From an uncultured Rivularia sp. (GTDB lineage: Bacteria > Cyanobacteriota > Cyanobacteriia > Cyanobacteriales > Nostocaceae), in assembly GCA_963665115.1 (NCBI GenBank), contig OY762007.1, forward strand, positions 2,784,001-2,848,000: a stretch of DNA of 64,000 bases, read 5' to 3'. A program made the position numbers and the translations under genes. Positions 54,217-64,000 of the stretch are shown here, piece after piece. Within the stretch, counting starts at the first letter, position 1, and every line of letters starts with the position of its first letter. The notes under the pieces were generated by a model that saw only the letters and a list, made by a program, of their open reading frames with translations, did not search any database and was not told the DNA's origin.

Positions 54217-54406
54217 TTTGGGAATTGGGCATGGGGGATTGGGAATTGTTTATTGATGGCTGAATTTTCTAAGATTTTGATGAAATTCTTTTGAGAGCGC
54301 TTTTTCTTACGAATTACTCATTAACAATTACCTATTAACAAGAAAATCTGTGTTTAATACGATAGAATTTTGAGAAATATTGAATTTTAAGCATTCGAGG
54401 ACATTT

Positions 54407-55967
54407 ATGTTCCAAGATATTGCGGCTCGGATTACTTTTCCTTCCTCATCTCTAAATTTAGTTACAGTCTTAGGTGTTACCAGCACAGCAGGAATACTTG
54501 GTTGGCGATGGTGGAAACACAAAAATTATTATAAATCTCTACATTCACTTCCTTCTCCTCCCAAACATTGGCTGTTAGGAAATATTCCTCAATTGTTAGC
54601 AGCAGTCAAGCAAAGGAAAGTATTTAAATTAATATTTGACTGGAGCCAGCAACTAGGGGCCAATGTACGTTTACTGGAGAGGTAGTAAACCAGTTGTTGT
54701 GTTGAGTAAGCCAAAAGTAATTGAAGACACCATCATTAATGGAATGCGAGATGGTAGCTTAGTTAGATTCGAGTCAATTAGCGAAGCTTGGAACGATATC
54801 GGTGGCCCAATTCTTTTAGGACAACAAGGATCTGAGTGGCAGTGGCGACGCAAAGCTTGGAATCCCGAATTCAGTTCTAGCAATCTCTCTAAATATGTGG
54901 AAATTATCAACCAAGCTTGCGAACAAGTGGTTGAGGAAATTCAGGAAGCTGAACTATCACAAGAGATTCGAGTAGATCCTGTTTTTGTAGAATTGACTAT
55001 GAGGGTTATTTGTTGTCTAGTTTTTGGGGTTCCTGTTAACCCAAAAAAACCTACTCTTGAAGGACCACCCCTCAACGTTGCGAAGCTATACGATGCCATA
55101 TCTGTTTTAAGCTATCGCTTTTTAAAGGCAGCTGTTGGTCAAAATAAATCGATAACATTTCTGCCAAATAAAGATTCACAAGCTTATTCTACTGCAAGGC
55201 AATGTATTAATGAATTTATCGCTCCTCGTGTAGATTTAGCTTTACAGATGAGAGAACAAAACAACACCGTAAAAGAAAATGTCAGTTCTTTGTTCCAAGA
55301 ATCAATGTTAGTAAAAATAGCTGCCAAAGAACCAAAATACAATCGAGAATCATTGATTGGAGAAGCTATTGAACTTTTACTAGCTGGTACTGACACGACA
55401 GCCCATACTTTATCTTTTGCAGTAGCAGAACTGTCTTTAAATCCAAGGGTTTTCCAGCAGGCACGGAGCGTTGTCGATCGAGTTTGGCAAAATCAAGGTG
55501 CTATCAGTATCGAAAACTTCAAGGAATTAAGTTATATCAGCGCTATTATCAAGGAAACTTTACGGCTTTATTCCGTTGCTTCCGGCTCAACTCCATTAGA
55601 GGCTAAACGAGAAACGGTTATTGACGGACAGGTGATTCCTGCGGGTACAGGAATATCATGGTCAATGCTTGCTGCTGGTAGAGATCCAGAAGTTTATTCT
55701 CCCAATCCTGAACAATTCATGCCGGAACGGTGGCTAGACAAAACGAAGGAAACTAGTCAACTGCCAATGATACATTTTGGTTCTGGTTCTCATCGTTGCT
55801 TGGGAGAGCATCTATCTATGTTAGAAGCAACCGTAATGCTCTCACTATTACTGCATCACTTTGACTGGGAATTAGTCAAAGGACGTTCATCTGTAGAAGA
55901 TTTACAGCAGAACATTTTGATTTATCCTGCCGATGGAATGCCAGTCCGCTTTGAATCGAGAAAATGA
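54407..55967 (+). CDS. Cytochrome P450 with N-terminal membrane anchor (apparent +1 frameshift at 54656-54659)
   Basis: AGTDTT, ETLR, PERW, FGSGSHRCLG; removing one base joins QQLG-PMYVYW. Confidence 0.92.
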
Positions 55968-56209: not shown

Positions 56210-57490
56210 TTGCGAATGAAAAAGTCACTTCCTGTAATTATCGTTGCTGTACCAGTAGCCACTTTGTTAATAACCGTTAGCCCTCTCGGACGTTTATTAC
56301 TTAGTCCGCTAGAGTGTCAATTAAAGAGATGGCAATTACCAGTATCGATTAAAACTCCAAACTCAGAAACACCACCGCTAATTGCAACAACAAAACCGCC
56401 TTTTCCCTGTTGTGAAGGCGATACTTCTTGTTTAGATAGACAAATATGGGGAGAAAGTAGTCAACAATCGGATAGAAAAATTCTTTTAAGTTCTATAGAC
56501 AGTAGTTTGCAATATTTACAAACCGCCAGGGCTAAGAACACGTATGAAAGATATGAAAAAAACAAAGTACCCGGAATTAGTAGAGAAAGAGTAATCGAGA
56601 GTTTACAAAGATTTCGTCAATTGCTGCTCGAAACTAAATCCGCAGCAGAATTAAACCAAGCTGTTGCTGAAGAGTTTGTTTTTTATCAATCGGTGGGCAA
56701 CGATAAAAAAGGAAAAGTTTTATTTACTGCTTATTTCGAGCCGCTTTATATTGCAAGTCGCGAACAAACAGCAGAATACCGCTATCCTATCTATGCTATA
56801 CCTCCAGATTTGAAAGAGTGGGAAAGGCCACATCCTACACGTTTGGATTTAGAAGGTGCTGATGGTTTACAAGGTGGAGAAGGCAAATTAAAAGGCTTAG
56901 AATTATTTTGGTTTAAATCCCGTCTCGAACCGTACATGATGCAAATTCAAGGTTCTGCTAAACTTCGACTGCTCAATGGTACTCAAACCAGCGTCGGTTT
57001 TGCCGGAAATGTCGCTCATAATTACCAAAGCATCGGTAAAGCTTTAATCGATGACGGCGAACTACCATCAAGCGGTGTGACAATGCCGACTATTTTAGAA
57101 TACTTTGAAAAAGACCCCAAAAAATTAGACGTTTATATTCCTCGCGACCCTAGTTTTGTATTTTTCCAGGAAAATAAAGGTGCCCCAGCACGAGGTTCAA
57201 TCCAAGTAGGATTAAGTGCAGAACGTTCAATTGCTACAGATAAATCTTTAATGCCACCCGGAGCATTAGCCTTGATACGCGGTCATTTCCCCTTTGCCAC
57301 AGACAGCGGCGATCTGAAACACCGCACAGTCAGCCGTTATGTTTTAGACCAAGATGCAGGTGGTGCCATCAAAGGTGCGGGTAGAGTTGATTACTTCCTG
57401 GGAACCGGAAAAATTGCTGGCGATCGCGCTGGGGTAACTGTCACCAACGGACAACTTTATTACCTACTACTCAAGAACAAATCATCATAA
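56210..57490 (+). CDS. mltA: Lytic murein transglycosylase A
   Basis: FTAYFEP, QIQGS, SFVFF, SIATD, DQDAGGAIKG..RVD.F.G. Confidence 0.9.
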   Translation: MRMKKSLPVIIVAVPVATLLITVSPLGRLLLSPLECQLKRWQLPVSIKTPNSETPPLIATTKPPFPCCEGDTSCLDRQIWGESSQQSDRKILLSSIDSSLQYLQTARAKNTYERYEKNKVPGISRERVIESLQRFRQLLLETKSAAELNQAVAEEFVFYQSVGNDKKGKVLFTAYFEPLYIASREQTAEYRYPIYAIPPDLKEWERPHPTRLDLEGADGLQGGEGKLKGLELFWFKSRLEPYMMQIQGSAKLRLLNGTQTSVGFAGNVAHNYQSIGKALIDDGELPSSGVTMPTILEYFEKDPKKLDVYIPRDPSFVFFQENKGAPARGSIQVGLSAERSIATDKSLMPPGALALIRGHFPFATDSGDLKHRTVSRYVLDQDAGGAIKGAGRVDYFLGTGKIAGDRAGVTVTNGQLYYLLLKNKSS

Positions 57491-57786
57491 ATCATCTACT
57501 TTAAGATAGATATTATCAAATTATTTTAATTAATTTGTTTATAATTCTTATTGATTTCATTAAATAAAAAATGGAACCACTATAAAATTTTGTCGTCAAA
57601 TAAAATAGTGTCGTTTAAGCAATTAAGAATAGATCATTTTTGTCAATAGCTTCATATTGATCTTTATTTTAAAGACAAGAAAATATTTTTTTGCTAAATA
57701 ATTTGTAGAAATCAGAAAAACTGTGAGAGCAATTTGTATATAGAACTATTAATGCTGTAGAACATAAGAATATCAAGTTTAAAGTC

Positions 57787-58276
57787 TTGTTTACAGCAAT
57801 ATATAACGCTTTATCGGGGAGATTAAAAGTGATTAGGATTTTAGTTGATGCGGATCTAATTTTGGAAGCTTTAATGAATCGTAATACGGTACAAGATGTT
57901 AGAGAATTGCTAGATAAAGTAAACCCTTTGATTCAAATGTATATAACAGATGTTGGATGGCAAAAAATAGATACTTATCTTAATCATTTACAAAGTAAGA
58001 AAATTGCCGAAATAGTAATTAATTGGTTGGAAGAAAAAATTAAAGTTTGTTCCGTAAACCAATATATTTTAAAACAAGCGCGTTCCTCACCCATTAAAGA
58101 TTTTGAATCTGCTGTTGAATTTATCTGTGCTAGCTATCAACAATTAGATGCGATTGTCACTCATAAATACGACGATTTTGCCGAAGTATCAGATAAATTA
58201 TGGGTTTGGGTCTATGGCAGAATTATGGATACGTGCTAATTTAGAAACTCAACTCCAAACCGAAGCATTTATTTAG
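57787..58276 (+). CDS. PIN-domain protein (probable +1 frameshift at 58208-58210; as read, ends at 58239)
   Basis: ILVDADLIL, DFESAV, LDAIVT..DDF; the corrected tail reads WVWSMAELWIRANLETQLQTEAFI. Confidence 0.75.
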
Positions 58277-58609
58277 CTTCTTGTTCTGTATTCTTAGAAT
58301 ATTATAAGTATCAGAAAAACCAGAAGATTATTTTAAGCATTCTAAACGAATAGAACGGAATTCAATTTGCTTTGGCAAGAATGTTAAGTTAGCCTCCATG
58401 ATTTTCTTCTGAGTTTCAATAATTACGATTTCTTTTCCTAAACGAGACATTCTCAAATTACGATCTTTCGTTCGTGCTAGTTGAAAGATCGTACTAAAAT
58501 AAACTCCAGCATAAAAATTGTAACCGAAGTCGTTTTTCCTATTTTTATAGGCATTAGGAACATTGTTAAACGGGTAAATATTGGAATAATTAACATTATT
58601 CGAGCATAG

Positions 58610-59077
58610 CTATCGTACAGAAACCTCTAATTGGTAATTTAAAATGCCATTGCCGCTAGTTTGCTGAGTAAGATTACTATTCGGAGCATCAAACTCAACT
58701 TTTATCGGAGATATCGCAGGAGCATAATTTGCAGATATTTCGACTTTATGCTCCCCTACTGACAAATAACGCGATAAATCAATCTCAGTGTTTTGATAGC
58801 TTAGGTTTTTAACAACTTTTCCATTCACAATTATTTTGCCATTTAATTGAGTTGCCGAAGTTTCAATTTTCAGAATATGTGGTTGCGATAGATTCGCAGC
58901 ACTTAAACTAACTTTTCCACGTTGATATCCCGAAGAATTACTGGTAAATGTAGTAAAACTATTTGAATTATTGTTCATATTATTAATCTGGTTATTTTTA
59001 GTAAAATTACCTGCAAAAGTTGCGGAAAACGTAATTAATGCAGCCGCACCGCAGATAATAAAAATTATTTTTTTCAT
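58610..59077 (-). CDS. Secreted beta-sandwich-like hypothetical protein (accessory to the cluster)
   Basis: Signal peptide ending TFA; Asn-rich linker; alternating beta-strand pattern. Confidence 0.75.
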   Translation of the reverse strand: MKKIIFIICGAAALITFSATFAGNFTKNNQINNMNNNSNSFTTFTSNSSGYQRGKVSLSAANLSQPHILKIETSATQLNGKIIVNGKVVKNLSYQNTEIDLSRYLSVGEHKVEISANYAPAISPIKVEFDAPNSNLTQQTSGNGILNYQLEVSVR

Positions 59078-59250
59078 AACGTTTTTTTTTATTATTTTCA
59101 CTGTTGCTTGTTACCTATAAACTCCTTGATAATTGATGCGTGACGGCAACATCAAATTATTTCACGATCTATGAAATTAATCTTAGCCATCGCACACCCT
59201 ACAAACTATAAAATAAATAATTCTTATAAAAAATTCTTATAAAACAAACA

Positions 59251-59271
59251 AAAGTCCCCCACTAAGGGGAC
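59251..59271 (-). terminator. Intrinsic terminator after the 59299 gene
   Basis: GTCCCC-loop-GGGGAC followed by a U-tract on the minus strand. Confidence 0.6.
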
Positions 59272-59298
59272 AATATTTATCTTTAATTTAAAAAAAAC

Positions 59299-59697
59299 TT
59301 ACCGTCTAAAAGAAGGAGCTTTAGGTTTTTTTGGTGTTTTTACGTGTACCGGAACATCTACTTTAATACCGATATTATTAGTATTAACACCAGTACGACG
59401 ATTTGGATCTCCATCAAGTCGTTGCCTGCTAGTTCGTCTTTGTTCGCAATCGGAAGATTTGCAAACTTGGGTTGATGTTGTTACCCCAGTAGTACCAACG
59501 GTACCTTTACAATTTTCGCCAAATTCTTGTGTTACATCGTTTCTTTGTCGTCCTTTTGGTGAATCATCGATTGACACTTGGACGTTTACATCAATCGCGT
59601 TACATCCTGCTAATGCTTTATTGCTCAAAGAAGGAACAAAAAAAGAAGAAACAGTAGTTAGCGAAAATAAGCTTAGAGAAAATAATTTCAACTTCAT
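59299..59697 (-). CDS. Secreted small protein, four Cys, basic C-terminus
   Basis: Signal peptide ending ALA; IDVNVQVSI and IGIKVDVPVHV strands. Confidence 0.8.
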   Translation of the reverse strand: MKLKLFSLSLFSLTTVSSFFVPSLSNKALAGCNAIDVNVQVSIDDSPKGRQRNDVTQEFGENCKGTVGTTGVTTSTQVCKSSDCEQRRTSRQRLDGDPNRRTGVNTNNIGIKVDVPVHVKTPKKPKAPSFRR

Positions 59698-59711
59698 AGT
59701 TGCATCCTTGA

Positions 59712-60041
59712 TTATTGACAGGTTGTTGTTGTTGTGCGAGCGTAAGAACGATTATTACCAGAACCAGTTTTACGAGTGCTGCGGTAAGTTGTGCAATTAC
59801 CTCTTTTCTTTATGGTTTGACGGTAGATGCTACGTGAAGAATTGCGATTTGCAGAACCACGCTTAAATCGACGACGGTAGATTCTTCTACGATTATTTCT
59901 AATTTTTATGTCACCGTTGCGATTGATTGTTACCCTAGAATTTCCGTTTTGAACTTTAATATTTCCGGCTGTGGCAATTCCAGCAGGTAATATCATTAGT
60001 ACGGACAATGCCAGGATATAAATTGCTTGTTTAACGGGCAT
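59712..60041 (-). CDS. Secreted Arg-rich small protein, two Cys
   Basis: Signal peptide ending ATA; NNRRRIYRRRFKR; ends TTTTTCQ. Confidence 0.75.
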   Translation of the reverse strand: MPVKQAIYILALSVLMILPAGIATAGNIKVQNGNSRVTINRNGDIKIRNNRRRIYRRRFKRGSANRNSSRSIYRQTIKKRGNCTTYRSTRKTGSGNNRSYARTTTTTCQ

Positions 60042-60176
60042 AATTTTGTACCTTTTGTAATAGAAAAAACCGATTTTTATAGTAATTAAAAAAATAATTA
60101 ATAAAATCGGCAAAACTAGAATTAGGTAACACCCGGACTCAAACCGCAGACTCTTGAAAAAGATAATTTGGTCGCA

Positions 60177-60518
60177 TTAGTAACAGTAGCGAGAACCCAT
60201 TAGGAGTTGACGCTGAATGTTTACTTGATCGGCATTTTGGTTAACAAAACCACCATCAACAGCAACAGCATTTTGATCGATCCGCTGATTTGAATGCTGT
60301 GACTGGGAATCTTTACTACATCTGCGGTTGCGGGGACCTATTCTTTCTTGACGCTGAATGCTTATCTGTCTACCACTTTGAATAACTCTACTACCAGAAC
60401 CAAGTACTGTAGCTTCTTGGTTTGTCTCTTGAGTAGCTCCTTGCCCTGCAAATGCTGCGCTTGGTACAAAAATCAAAGCAGCAGCTAGTAAACCCAGCGT
60501 AGAAATTTTCTCGATCAT
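60177..60518 (-). CDS. Secreted Gln-ladder repeat protein, paralogue 5 (most diverged)
   Basis: MIEKISTLGLLAAALIFVPSAAFA; two repeats; central and terminal Cys. Confidence 0.82.
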   Translation of the reverse strand: MIEKISTLGLLAAALIFVPSAAFAGQGATQETNQEATVLGSGSRVIQSGRQISIQRQERIGPRNRRCSKDSQSQHSNQRIDQNAVAVDGGFVNQNADQVNIQRQLLMGSRYCY

Positions 60519-60745
60519 TTTTATAAACCTTATTAGTGTTGCGCGTGTTGTAATTCTTAGTTTGTAGAGACGTGATACAGCATATTTAGTTTTGGTGAAG
60601 TACATTCTGACGGGCAGGGATGCCCATCCCACAAGACTTTCGGAATATAGATTTGTACCTCATTTAGCTGCAAAGGGCTGTATATCGCGTCTCTACATCT
60701 TCCGGGATAACGAAAAATCCTTGGGGAAGGGGTTAGGTTTTGATA

Positions 60746-61120
60746 TTAGCGATAGCAACCAGTACTAGATACTACAACTTGATTTTGTTCGCTGACGCTA
60801 GTAGTAGCTTGAGCATTATCAGAATAATCTATAGCACCACCAGTTTGAGTCGATGCTTGAGTAGAAGCTTGTGACTGGCTGCTGTAACTACCGGGACAGT
60901 GACGGCGGAAACGCTTAAAAGCATTGCGCTGACGTAATTTAACTTGTTCTTGAATACTCAAAGCTTCTCCACTCTGAGCATTTACACTACCGCCGATCGC
61001 AGTACCATGCTGAGTATTAATTTGTACATTGTCTTGTCTTTGGGAATCAGCAAAAGCCGCACCGGGAGCAACCATCAAACCAGCAGCTAGTAAACCGAAA
61101 GCAGCATATTTGTTTAGCAT
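60746..61120 (-). CDS. Secreted Gln-ladder repeat protein, paralogue 4
   Basis: MLNKYAAFGLLAAGLMVAPGAAFA; GAGG RBS; two NAQ repeats; two Cys. Confidence 0.85.
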   Translation of the reverse strand: MLNKYAAFGLLAAGLMVAPGAAFADSQRQDNVQINTQHGTAIGGSVNAQSGEALSIQEQVKLRQRNAFKRFRRHCPGSYSSQSQASTQASTQTGGAIDYSDNAQATTSVSEQNQVVVSSTGCYR

Positions 61121-61196
61121 TTTTTAAACCTCAAAAATTTTCATTGGTTGTCAATTATCAGTTGCTAATTAACTGATAATTGATAATTGATAACTG

Positions 61197-61604
61197 TTAT
61201 CGACAAGCGCGGTTGGTTGAAGCAGTTTGTCTTTGGTCGCTAACGCTACTACCAGATTGAGCATTGTCAGAATAATCTACAGCCACACCGCTTTGAACGG
61301 TTCCCTGAGAAGAATTTTGTGCCTGTGCGCTAGAGCTACCACCGCAGTAGCTAGGACGACTGTAACGACGGCCGCGACCGTAATGACCGCCGCGACGACC
61401 ACCTACTTTTTTGCGAGTTTTCTGAATTTGCTCTTGCACGCTAAGAGATTCAGAACTTTGAGCATTTACACCACCGTCAATTGCGGTTCCTTGTTGAACT
61501 GTATGTTGAGTACTATTCTGAGTTTGAACATCAGCCAAAGCCGCACCAGGTGCAACCATCAAACCAGCAGCCAATAAACCGAAACCAAATGACTTCTTAA
61601 ACAT
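61197..61604 (-). CDS. Secreted Gln-ladder repeat protein, paralogue 3
   Basis: MFKKSFGFGLLAAGLMVAPGAALA; GAGG RBS; two 33-aa repeats; ends ACR. Confidence 0.88.
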   Translation of the reverse strand: MFKKSFGFGLLAAGLMVAPGAALADVQTQNSTQHTVQQGTAIDGGVNAQSSESLSVQEQIQKTRKKVGGRRGGHYGRGRRYSRPSYCGGSSSAQAQNSSQGTVQSGVAVDYSDNAQSGSSVSDQRQTASTNRACR

Positions 61605-61775
61605 TGTATTTTCCTCGTTGTAATTGTGTTGTGTGTTGTTGTGTTGAATTGAAATGGCATTGCACAGATGAACAATTATCAATTACCAATTATTAATGAA
61701 TTAACCTTCCACACTCGCTTCGGGTGAAAACTTTTTGTTGTTCATTGTTCATTGTTCACTGATAACTGTTAACTG

Positions 61776-62183
61776 TTACCTGCAAGCGCGGTTGGTTGCA
61801 GCAGTTTGTCTTTGGTCGCTAACGCTGCTACCAGATTGAGCATTGTCAGAATAATCTACAGCCACACCGCTTTGAACGGTTCCCTGAGAAGAATTTTGTG
61901 CCTGTGCGCTAGAGCTACCACCGCAGTAGCTAGGACGACTGTAACCACGGCCACGACCGTAATGACCGCCGCGACGGCCACCTACTTTTTTGCGAGTTTT
62001 CTGAATTTGCTCTTGCACGCTAAGAGATTCAGAACTTTGAGCGTTTACACTACCGTCAATTGCGGTTCCTTGTTGAACGGTATGTTGATTACTATTCTGA
62101 GTTTGAACATCAGCCAAAGCCGCACCAGGTGCAACCATCAAACCAGCAGCCAATAAACCGAAACCAAAAGACTTCTTAAACAT
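61776..62183 (-). CDS. Secreted Gln-ladder repeat protein, paralogue 2
   Basis: Differs from paralogue 3 at 4 of 135 aa; GAGG RBS. Confidence 0.88.
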   Translation of the reverse strand: MFKKSFGFGLLAAGLMVAPGAALADVQTQNSNQHTVQQGTAIDGSVNAQSSESLSVQEQIQKTRKKVGGRRGGHYGRGRGYSRPSYCGGSSSAQAQNSSQGTVQSGVAVDYSDNAQSGSSVSDQRQTAATNRACR

Positions 62184-62363
62184 TGTATTAACCTCGTTGT
62201 AATTGTGTTGTGTGTGTTGTTGTGTTGAATTGAAATGGCATTGCATAGATGAACAATTACCAATTATCAATTATCAATTACTAATTAATTAACCTTCCAC
62301 ACTCGCTTCGGGTGAAAACAAATCATTCTTCATTGATAATTGTTCATTGATAATTGATAACTG

Positions 62364-62762
62364 TTACCGGCAAGCACGGCTAGTTGAAGCAGTCTGCTTC
62401 TGGTCGCTAACGCTGCTGTTAGATTGTCCGTTGACCGAACCGTCGAAAGCTTCTCCAGTCTGAAGTGTTCCTTGTGAAGAGTTTTGCGACTGTCCGCTAT
62501 GGCGACTACCACAGAAAGCAGGACGACCGCGACGACGACCAAAACGACCACCACGACCACCTACTTTATTGCGAGTTTTCTGAATTTGCTCTTGTACGTT
62601 AAGGGTTTCAGAACTCTGAGCGTTGGTACTGCCATGTTCTGCGATGCCGTCTTGAATTGTTTGTTGATTGCTATTTTGAGATTGAGAATTAGCTAAAGCC
62701 GCACCAGGTGCAACCATCAAAGCAGCAGCTAATAAACCGAAACCCAATGACTTCTTAAACAT
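62364..62762 (-). CDS. Secreted Gln-ladder repeat protein, paralogue 1
   Basis: MFKKSLGFGLLAAALMVAPGAALA; GAGG RBS; two repeats; ends ACR. Confidence 0.88.
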   Translation of the reverse strand: MFKKSLGFGLLAAALMVAPGAALANSQSQNSNQQTIQDGIAEHGSTNAQSSETLNVQEQIQKTRNKVGGRGGRFGRRRGRPAFCGSRHSGQSQNSSQGTLQTGEAFDGSVNGQSNSSVSDQKQTASTSRACR

Positions 62763-63055
62763 TTTATAAACCTCGTGTAATAGTGTTGTGTGTTGTGTCG
62801 AACAAGAGTGTGTTGTTACCCAGAAAAGAAACGTTCTTTAAAGTTTTAGTGGGTGTTTATTAAGAACCCGTGATGAACTTTTAAAGATTGTATTTTTCTC
62901 TTGCGGTATATACGGGGCTACAAATTTCAATTTGTTGATTCCGGATTTCTCCGAATTTTTTTTGAAATAGATATTCTTTTGTCAGTTATCAGTGACCAAT
63001 GACTCAGATGCACTGCGAACAACTGATATATAGAATTAAATCTCTCTACCTAAAT

Positions 63056-63092
63056 ACTTTAACCAAAGAACTTAAGGGTGTCAAGTCTTTGG
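63056..63092 (-). promoter_or_regulatory. Sigma70-type promoter facing the secreted-protein cluster, overlapped by an inverted repeat
   Basis: Minus strand TTGACA (63084-63079)-N17-TAAAGT (63061-63056); CCAAAGAACTT-N9-AAGTCTTTGG. Confidence 0.55.
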
Positions 63093-63165
63093 GTAAGAAA
63101 ACTGGGCGCTATAATTTTTTTGATGTTACGATGTACGGCTATATAAGACAATAGCGCTTGTAATT

Positions 63166-63492
63166 GTGAAACAGAAACCAAAACCAAGAATAGCTTTCCT
63201 TCGTGAAAAGGCGGGTTTAACCCAGCTTGAACTGTCTCGTCTCGTAGGCGTGACAGAAAGCACCATCCAGAATTGGGAGAGTGGCAGGACGGGTACAGAC
63301 CACATTCAAAGAATAGTAAACTTCTGTAAAGCTCTTAATTGCAAAGTAGAAGATTTGATTGAGTTAAACGAAAGCGAACTTCCACAAGAAGCATCGACAA
63401 AACCTGCTTCATTACAAGAAATACAAAATTTACTAGGTACCGACGAAGAGAAAGCAAGGGAAGCAGAGCAAGCAATTATCAGTGAACAATGA
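63166..63492 (+). CDS. XRE-family helix-turn-helix regulator
   Basis: LREKAGLTQLELSRLVGVTESTIQNWESG...CKALNCKVEDL. Confidence 0.92.
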   Translation: MKQKPKPRIAFLREKAGLTQLELSRLVGVTESTIQNWESGRTGTDHIQRIVNFCKALNCKVEDLIELNESELPQEASTKPASLQEIQNLLGTDEEKAREAEQAIISEQ

Positions 63493-63524
63493 ACAATAAA
63501 CAATGAACAATTATCAAATATTTA

Positions 63525-63699
63525 TTAACCTTTAACCTTTGACCTTTGACCTTTGACCTTTGACCTTTGACCTTTGACCTTTGACCTTTAACCTTTGACC
63601 TTTAACCTTTGACCTTTAACCTTTGACCTTTGACCTTTAACCTTTGACCTTTGACCTTTAACCTTTGACCTTTAACCTTTGACCTTTGACCTTTAACCT
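63525..63699. repeat. Heptamer tandem array TT(A/G)ACCT x25
   Basis: 175 bp of uninterrupted heptamers; the same unit occurs at ~22918 and, inverted, at ~30500. Confidence 0.92.
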
Positions 63700-64000
63700 A
63701 TAACCTAATTCTTTCTTGCCATAAAGTATCTATAGTCACGAACGAATATCCCTGCTCTAAAAGTCTTGGGATGATAATTTGTGCTATTTCAGCTACGTTT
63801 TGTCCGCCACAAGCGCCGTCGTGCAATACTATTAAAGAGCCATTTTCTAAGTTATCCATAACTCTATTGACAACTTTGGGTACTCCCGGATTTACCCAAT
63901 CTTCCGGTACAACGCTCCACATTACAGGACGGTAATTCCACCGATAGAATAGCTGTAAAGTTTGAGGTGTAAATAAACCATTTGGCGGTCGGATATCGCG
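63698..64000 (-). CDS. Polysaccharide deacetylase (NodB-like), 3' part; runs off the window
   Basis: IRPPNG...MWSVVPEDW...GSLIVLHDG...GYSFVT. Confidence 0.88.
   Translation of the reverse strand, partial: RDIRPPNGLFTPQTLQLFYRWNYRPVMWSVVPEDWVNPGVPKVVNRVMDNLENGSLIVLHDGACGGQNVAEIAQIIIPRLLEQGYSFVTIDTLWQERIRL

Follow-up and report, generated by a model that had tools for sequence, protein, structure and literature searches.

Towards one end of a 64,000-nucleotide stretch of DNA from an uncultured Rivularia sp. (assembly GCA_963665115.1, contig OY762007.1, positions 2,784,001 to 2,848,000; hereafter the window), five paralogous open reading frames (ORFs), p1 to p5, fill positions 60177-62762 of the minus strand. 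Their products appear to share a conserved, apparently undescribed subunit design of the bacterial functional-amyloid kind. The first, p1 (62364-62762), is a major-type subunit of 132 amino acids with a predicted Sec signal peptide, a repeat, an Arg/Gly loop containing Cys84, a second repeat and a tail with Cys131. The major-type subunits p2 (61776-62183) and p3 (61197-61604), each of 135 amino acids, are 97% identical; 12 codons differ, four of them altering the residue, and this near-identity is best read as recent duplication or conversion. A divergent major-type subunit with a short basic loop, p4 (60746-61120, 124 amino acids), is followed by the last-position subunit p5 (60177-60518, 113 amino acids), a putative minor or nucleator subunit whose ATG at 60518, aligned with the other paralogue starts, we chose over an upstream GTG. 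All five begin with a hydrophobic leader ending in Ala-x-Ala, and the mature sequence that follows has abundant Q, S, N, T and G. The 8.69 Mb genome has no sixth copy of the subunit gene, and the plus-strand ORFs 61227-61577 and 61806-62156 were rejected as shadows of the real subunit genes.

The p1-p3 genes have a common A/C-rich 5' leader with GAGG at its end, seven bases before the ATG. Inverted short heptamer repeats, which could form hairpins in the mRNA, lie between the subunit genes (61140-61200, 61660-61775 and 62245-62365). A promoter scan remained at chance level (12 found, 13.9 expected), and positions 57000-64000 gave no Rfam match. C-ending codons of p1-p3 (20/46, or 0.43) lie near the genome's 95th percentile, but these counts are too small to use.

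Repeats, loop and cysteines of the subunits

The original prediction, made from the letters of the window, held that p2 contains two 33-residue repeats that align without gaps, and this was borne out. The repeats correspond to mature residues 3-35 (62007-62105, a predicted strand-arc-strand rung) and 70-102 (61806-61904), and they are identical at 20 of 33 positions, namely 16 of the 17 odd ones and 4 of the 16 even ones (Fisher p 6e-5). When p2 was shuffled 500 times, the best self-match averaged 8.1 and never exceeded 12. Repeat identities in p1, p3 and p4 were 17, 19 and 15 of 33, against shuffle maxima of 10-11, and in p5 the gapless match was marginal (11/30, shuffle maximum 10) because the arc of its repeat 1 is one residue longer. 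A hidden Markov model (HMM) of the single repeat found two repeats in each of p1-p5 and matched nothing in the rest of the genome at E<0.5.

Two is also the usual repeat number among homologues: of 412 repeat-bearing proteins, 363 have two repeats, eight have three and 41 have one scored repeat. Our set of 354 two-repeat proteins, which is weighted to close relatives, leaves out 74 of 428 candidates (16 with no repeat, 41 with one, eight with three and nine that were short); six ORFs were dropped for the leader pattern or length. In these 354 proteins the odd positions, predicted to face inward, are led by Q (41%), followed by S (17%), N (14%), A (10%), T (8%) and G (6%); V, I, L and M together make up about 6%, and charged residues 0.2%. 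The even positions, predicted to face outward, are about 17% charged and include V and S (14% each), N (13%), T (11%), D (6%) and E (5%). Entropy in 74 non-redundant subunits was 1.4-1.5 bits at odd and 2.6-2.8 bits at even positions. Of 286 repeats, 175 have the arc X-G-X-X-N between the strands and 63 have x-x-G-S/N, which is shorter by one residue and is the form of p1-p4 in the window.

Charges on the outward face are matched between the two repeats. Among 122 proteins below 70% identity, outward position i of repeat 1 and position i of repeat 2 carried opposite charges 60 times, where 31 were expected (z 5.5); de-duplication at 60% (93 proteins) and 50% (53 proteins) left 45 against 23 (z 4.9) and 27 against 14 (z 4.2). 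At offsets of 2 or 4, z ranged from -1.8 to 2.5, and the in-register excess survived permutation within proteins (60 against 36 +/- 5). Duplication alone would favour like, not opposite, charges between the repeats. In-register opposite charges are expected of stacking and thus suggest that the repeats stack as rungs, in the manner of a beta-solenoid.

Covariation across the arch was also seen, with 9-27, 9-25, 11-23 and 1-33 being four of the top six pairs. Covariation alone is too weak an argument for an arch and against a hairpin; the in-register charge test carries it. An AlphaFold2 monomer model, of low confidence, has four strands (6-18, 22-37, 73-85 and 89-104) with the turns where they had been predicted. 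Fold searches with this model returned no match, which shows neither a new nor a different fold, and a four-copy complex prediction (score 0.29 against a mark of 0.42) carries no weight either way. Taken together, conservation and charge complementarity support an inward polar ladder within a cross-beta solenoid, much as originally proposed. One part of that proposal falls: the D of its 'A-x-D-x-S' motif sits in the turn, at a position that varies among homologues (22-49% charged), and is therefore not a ladder residue.

The loop between the repeats does vary, as predicted, and the four loop sequences quoted with that claim are all present. In p2 it spans 34 residues (61905-62006) and is rich in Arg, Gly and Tyr; across homologues its length runs from 6 to 39 residues. 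The loops of 74 Nostocales subunits contain 249 basic against 15 acidic residues, and none is net negative; an aromatic residue or His is present in 68 of the 74, three or more Arg in only 30. In the 354-protein set, loop net charge is positive in 305, neutral in 16 and negative in 33, and 108 loops have at least two RG/GR dipeptides, while distant Cys-free members have Asp/Tyr/Gly loops. The proposed cationic character of the loop thus persists as a basic bias, but Arg/Gly richness is lineage-specific and was rejected as a core feature. We regard the loop as what its sequence suggests, a variable surface decoration, for which binding of polyanions such as exopolysaccharide or DNA is plausible in this lineage.

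Each of p1-p5 has exactly two Cys, again as first noted, the first within the loop and the other second or third from the C-terminus (in p2, Cys87 at 61923-61925 and, after repeat 2, Cys134 at 61782-61784). Both are present in 231 of the 354 proteins and neither in 116, with another state in seven, one of which is a truncated record; the 74-member set divides into 50, 23 and one. Our hand-picked 143-sequence alignment, from which the single one-Cys sequence had been omitted, was not used for these counts. On a rough tree built from the repeat columns, Cys state changed jointly about 22 times (shuffled mean 47), and coupling is therefore repeated, rough though the tree is. Gain and loss of the two Cys together indicate that they are partners and dispensable; homotypic pairs, which would allow single losses, were rejected.

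The two Cys lie 3-8 residues before and 4-10 residues after repeat 2, whose first and last positions covary, and an intra-chain bond closing that rung is the simplest reading. An optional, intramolecular disulfide staple is thus likely. The earlier suggestion that the protomers are stapled or cross-linked keeps its Cys partnership, with a geometry that favours the intramolecular form, but loses any implication of necessity: ladder residues are conserved in homologues, whereas a third of the two-repeat homologues do without the Cys pair, which we therefore rejected as essential. Cys-free and Cys-bearing paralogues stand beside each other in single arrays (loci L033, L039, L040, L042 and L079), and the accessory genes A and B, described below, retain Cys pairs even where the subunits have none.

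The family and its operon

The close homologues come from Rivularia, Calothrix, Plectonema and Richelia and are listed as hypothetical proteins. When 1.84 billion representative sequences were searched with a profile, 144 matched at E<=0.001, of which three were long, unrelated repeat proteins. For 30 proteins that we looked up, all organism names obtained were cyanobacterial, although many entries had no name; the named hosts include Xenococcaceae, Stanieria, Chroococcidiopsis, Picosynechococcus, Synechocystis, Crocosphaera, Rippkaea, Nodularia, Anabaena, Dolichospermum, Trichocoleus and Allocoleopsis. The subunit profile matched at least 126 of 389 genomes of the window's own family and at least 22 of 401 in a phylum-wide sample, nearly all of the latter in the same taxonomic order; both are lower bounds because only the top candidates per genome were scored. 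No longer or fused form of the subunit occurred among 7997 scored candidates, which is weak evidence, and a search of PDB sequences at E up to 10 returned signal-peptide noise only. The automatic name 'filamentous hemagglutinin' on the ESM Atlas cluster nearest to p2 was rejected, as that cluster has no Pfam family and low recognition.

The subunit genes lead a larger conserved operon, which the original prediction had missed. The arrangement subunit(s)-A-B-C(-D) is shared between genera and between families, A, B, C or D being lost now and then, and arrays hold from one to nine subunit copies. On the rough tree, last-position subunits like p5 cluster across genera and major copies mostly by lineage; this separate grouping fits a distinct minor subunit. 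Scans of the subunits and of genes A-D against Pfam and NCBIfam gave nothing above cut-off.

All four accessory genes lie downstream of the subunit genes, on the minus strand as well. Gene A (59712-60041, 109 amino acids) has a predicted signal peptide, a beta-meander, a basic linker and a Cys pair that includes a near-terminal Cys; 51 of its 53 homologues have two Cys. Gene B (59299-59697, 132 amino acids) is beta-rich behind a predicted signal peptide, has two or four Cys in 53 of 58 homologues, and is the most constant partner of the subunits outside Nostocales. A hairpin resembling an intrinsic terminator (59254-59271, minus strand), a pattern match only, separates it from gene C (58610-59077, 155 amino acids), which has a predicted signal peptide, a disordered linker and a predicted Ig/FnIII-like beta-sandwich. 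The gene C model is confident, with 95 residues at a predicted local distance difference test (pLDDT) of >=90, but fold searches returned only generic Ig/FnIII/jelly-roll sandwiches, with a best Z of 6.8 and no specific match. We infer that gene C encodes a chaperone or tip protein. Its profile matched 122 of the 389 same-family genomes, including a few that lack subunits and hold it in another context. In four loci without subunits (L091, L093, L095 and L096) gene C homologues stand behind two unannotated, secreted-looking genes, one of them helical and Ala-rich, and the beta-sandwich would therefore seem to be reused in another small operon.

Directly after gene C lies a remnant of gene D (58331-58603), without about 70 N-terminal profile positions and 10 hairpin residues. 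Intact copies elsewhere (L084:967-1518, L139:4493-5005 and L140:3028-3597) have a leader, a short Asn/Gln-rich stretch, an amphipathic beta-hairpin and, over about 45 residues, a coiled coil. They belong to no Pfam family, and their look-alikes in the ESM Atlas include two phage clusters at 0.93. The intact protein is a candidate outer-membrane oligomer. The gene is partial in L037, L038, L068, L072 and L074 and intact in L058 and L071, and thus appears to be decaying within one lineage.

Upstream of the subunits and divergently transcribed is an XRE-family helix-turn-helix gene (63166-63492, plus strand), a candidate regulator of the operon. A homologue is present in 26 of 28 fetched Nostocales-type loci, the two misses ending at a contig edge, and in none of 12 other loci; it is kept even in one Nostocales-type locus that lacks the other neighbours.

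Variants of the arrangement were also seen. Unicellular relatives (L127, L128, L130 and L136) have three-repeat, Cys-free subunits adjoined only by gene B or gene C, which suggests a minimal version of the system. Orphan subunit genes occur away from the operon at L032:6029-6376, with equivalents at L035:6704-7051, L143:6389-6748 and L144:6029-6376; those of L035 and L144 have second strands rich in Arg, Lys and Ile and may be specialised tips.

Likeness to known fibres and the proposed assembly

Genome surveys of bacteria have dealt with two dedicated amyloid operons, curli and Fap, and section 10 of PMC12822426 does not name cyanobacteria among their phyla. The subunits resemble those of curli (PMC10192328, PMC12822426) in their small size, predicted Sec export, imperfect repeats of a predicted strand-arc-strand form and the probable logic of a major and a minor subunit, together with an alternation between predicted inward N/Q/S ladders and a variable, charged outward face. 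X-G-X-X before Asn is the arc signature of curli (PMC10192328), and most homologues here have it as well. In contrast to curli, the repeats are of 33-34 rather than about 23 residues, with predicted strands of about 15 rather than 7; they number two, rarely three, instead of 3-52; the predicted zipper is almost free of hydrophobic residues; and a long loop and an optional Cys pair are added. The curlin repeat family PF07012 is not among the 25 families listed for 143 members of the family, and none of those listed matched more than three members. PF07012, a repeat with N-x-Psi-x-Psi-x-Q motifs and a QX10Q kernel, had no match in the Rivularia genome in a scan whose E. coli control was positive, the curlin motif pattern occurred in none of the five paralogues, and hhalign gave probabilities of 0.2% and 0.1% against E. 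coli CsgA and CsgB. A UniRef label, 'Curlin associated repeat-containing protein', on one Stanieria homologue is unsupported by these scans. The genome has no match to CsgF; gene C compared with CsgC gave an hhalign probability of 0.5%, and neither CsgC nor CsgH was among its fold matches listed.

Fap repeats are about 37 residues long. The resemblance to Fap lies in a few long, imperfect repeats joined by variable linkers outside the core, in a predicted Asn/Gln polar core and in a single operon (PMC12392863). The same source describes charge-matched stacking of unlike repeats in FapC (PMC12392863), to which the charge pairing reported above would correspond. Unlike the three-repeat Fap subunits, those described here have two repeats; the fold predicted for them is a simple arch of two strands in place of a five-strand Greek key, and subunit genes are amplified in tandem, up to nine per array. 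No barrel-sized or peptidase ORF lies between the XRE and PIN genes of the window or among the operon genes of the fetched loci, no genome-wide search for FapF or FapD having been made. The PDB sequence matches at E<=10 contained no Fap chain, and none of the 25 listed NCBIfam families was a Fap model, in libraries where the presence of FapC is unconfirmed and no direct FapC profile comparison was made.

Among cyanobacteria, EbfG1-4 of Synechococcus elongatus are small secreted matrix proteins encoded in an operon, as ours may be, and amyloid formation by EbfG1-3 is reported in a heterologous assay (10.1101/2022.07.13.498973). EbfG export, however, needs the C39 peptidase transporter PteB according to that source, whereas our proteins have leaders that resemble Sec signals and 33-residue tandem repeats, the sequences themselves not having been directly compared; the window's operon contains no C39 peptidase transporter. 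The sheath protein SH of Methanospirillum hungatei, reported to be amyloid-like and to form a sheath around filaments (PMC10593813), is an analogy for a possible fibre location only.

As functional amyloids generally do, the locus has a dedicated operon with a major subunit, a minor subunit and accessory genes, in roles that we infer. Starting from the repeats, the alternation of small polar and charged positions, the Cys coupling, the variable loop and the gene order, all plain from the sequences, we think it probable that the operon encodes a secreted cross-beta fibre whose subunits bear a variable surface loop and, probably, an intramolecular staple, and that they work like those of curli and Fap while belonging to neither. 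Membership is argued against because repeat length and number, motif and secretion genes differ and there is no profile match to E. coli CsgA, CsgB or CsgC. Each subunit would be exported by Sec, cleaved after Ala-x-Ala and folded as two stacked strand-turn-strand rungs with strands of about 15 residues and an x-G-x-x-N or x-G-S arc. The odd positions (Gln, Ser, Asn, Ala, Thr) would interlock as a polar zipper where the two sheets meet and line up as ladders along the fibre; the even ones would face solvent, charge-matched between rungs. A disulfide between loop and tail Cys, closed in the periplasm, would seal the open end of rung 2 within one subunit, which would cross the outer membrane only thereafter. 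Head-to-tail stacking, two rungs per subunit, would then yield an amyloid-like fibre outside the cell membrane, with p5 either capping it or nucleating it, aided in nucleation by A-C, and genes A-C acting as chaperone, cap or anchor. The loop, outside the core and usually a basic and aromatic patch that varies by lineage, may hold anionic sheath polysaccharide, and the tandem copies p1-p4 would raise dosage and vary the loop.

Several observations weigh against such a fibre of stacked arches. Opposite charges are also, though more weakly, in excess within repeats, at positions i and 34-i (z 5.6, 4.2 and 1.1 at 70, 60 and 50% de-duplication); a lone arch would not lead one to expect this, whereas lateral packing or a same-face hairpin would agree with it, just as the covarying pairs that sum to 34 fit arch and hairpin alike. 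The sequences are related, and z values hence overstate independence. The AlphaFold2 monomer has a mean pLDDT of 51.5 and a predicted template modelling score of 0.29, and the signal peptides were read by eye, without a predictor. Export is the weakest step: the operon has no outer-membrane pore, and gene D, the sole candidate, is a broken remnant here and missing beside many intact arrays. CsgF is absent, and more than 2 Mb separate the operon, at 2,845 kb, from the genome's two CsgG-family genes, which are found at 114.5 kb and 598.5 kb and have no subunit gene in their neighbourhood. Finally, proteins named for Dolichospermum and Nodularia, which are largely planktonic genera, include single-copy operons, so that a role would not be tied to biofilms alone.

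The sum-34 covariation and the within-repeat charge excess at 70 and 60% de-duplication fit a 15:19 register, as would arise if the subunits polymerised as same-face beta-hairpins, in antiparallel sheets, ribbons or a pilus-like filament with packed Gln-rich faces, and not as a parallel beta-solenoid. D-G and N-G are common hairpin turns, and the short-arc subfamily has both; an Ig-like fold such as that of gene C is, moreover, often found in pilus parts. We nevertheless hold this arrangement to be rather improbable, as its within-repeat signal fades at 50% de-duplication (z 1.1) where the in-register signal holds (z 4.2), and most repeats bear the curli-type X-G-X-X-N arc. Low-complexity Q/S/N/G/T composition, the low model confidence, the many basic loops (305/354) and the lack of a linked outer-membrane pore in this genome would equally suit soluble proteins of the periplasm or sheath, whether disordered hydrophilic stress protectants or small polyanion binders, with the repeats a by-product of internal duplication. 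Disorder, however, would not keep one face free of charge (0.2%) against about 17% on the other, and the fixed length of 33 or 34 residues, position-specific charge pairing and a dedicated accessory operon would be unexpected; this explanation we judge decidedly improbable. A beta-solenoid-like repeat with Thr, Ser and Asn, in the Rivularia-type cyanobacteria, which calcify, might also bind ice or template mineral through a flat face, without polymerising, yet the outward face is variable and has no Thr or Asp array, and two rungs would probably be too few for a flat face on a monomer. Such a function seems to us highly improbable. A precursor of a ribosomally synthesised and post-translationally modified peptide was rejected in view of the Sec-type leader and an operon without a modifying enzyme.

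Within the stacked-rung fibre, the loop Cys of one subunit might instead bond the tail Cys of the next, giving a covalent polymer. Joint gain and loss fit pairing between subunits equally well, and with two rungs per subunit and a rise of 4.8 Å the neighbour's Cys would be about 10 Å away. We consider this unlikely: both Cys flank the same rung at its open end, Cys-free and Cys-bearing paralogues share arrays, genes A and B have similar internal pairs, and oxidation in the periplasm would precede assembly.

The sheaths and mats of cyanobacteria are commonly regarded as polysaccharide. If it encodes fibres, an unannotated, conserved operon carried by about one third of the sampled family genomes would supply a testable protein component for them. 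A nearly hydrophobe-free Gln zipper, if true, would be a natural model for polar-zipper amyloids, and a loop that tolerates 6-39 residues of any charge would be a ready display site for engineered fibres. We found no description of the operon in literature titles or the openings of abstracts, a search that covered few subscription journals, and proteomic tables could list the proteins as hypothetical. More tentatively, and as a reading that we hold less likely than not, the operon may be a third amyloid system of Gram-negative bacteria, one that evolved independently and is confined to cyanobacteria, marked by a wide, almost purely polar Gln zipper, two rungs, an optional staple and a swappable loop. 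Tandem copies would then tune the fibre surface, gene D, as an oligomer of hairpin and coiled coil, would be a new kind of outer-membrane pore or anchor, and in cyanobacteria of the Rivularia, Calothrix, Scytonema and Fischerella types the fibres would form a protein skeleton of the sheath or mat whose basic loops hold on to anionic polysaccharide.

Neighbouring genes and minor observations

Upstream of the operon, a polysaccharide deacetylase gene (PF01522; window 63698-64000, L036:9699-10268) is found on the same strand in 23 of the 28 Nostocales-type loci; the arrangement may reflect synteny alone or a connection with matrix polysaccharide. The interval 63530-63710, which separates the XRE gene from the deacetylase gene, holds about 25 heptamer repeats of the TTTGACC/TTTAACC type, arrays typical of heterocystous cyanobacteria. 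Elsewhere in the window, a cytochrome P450 at 54380-55967 seems to be divided between a short N-terminal ORF (54380-54685) and, in another frame, the main ORF (54663-55967), possibly by a frameshift.

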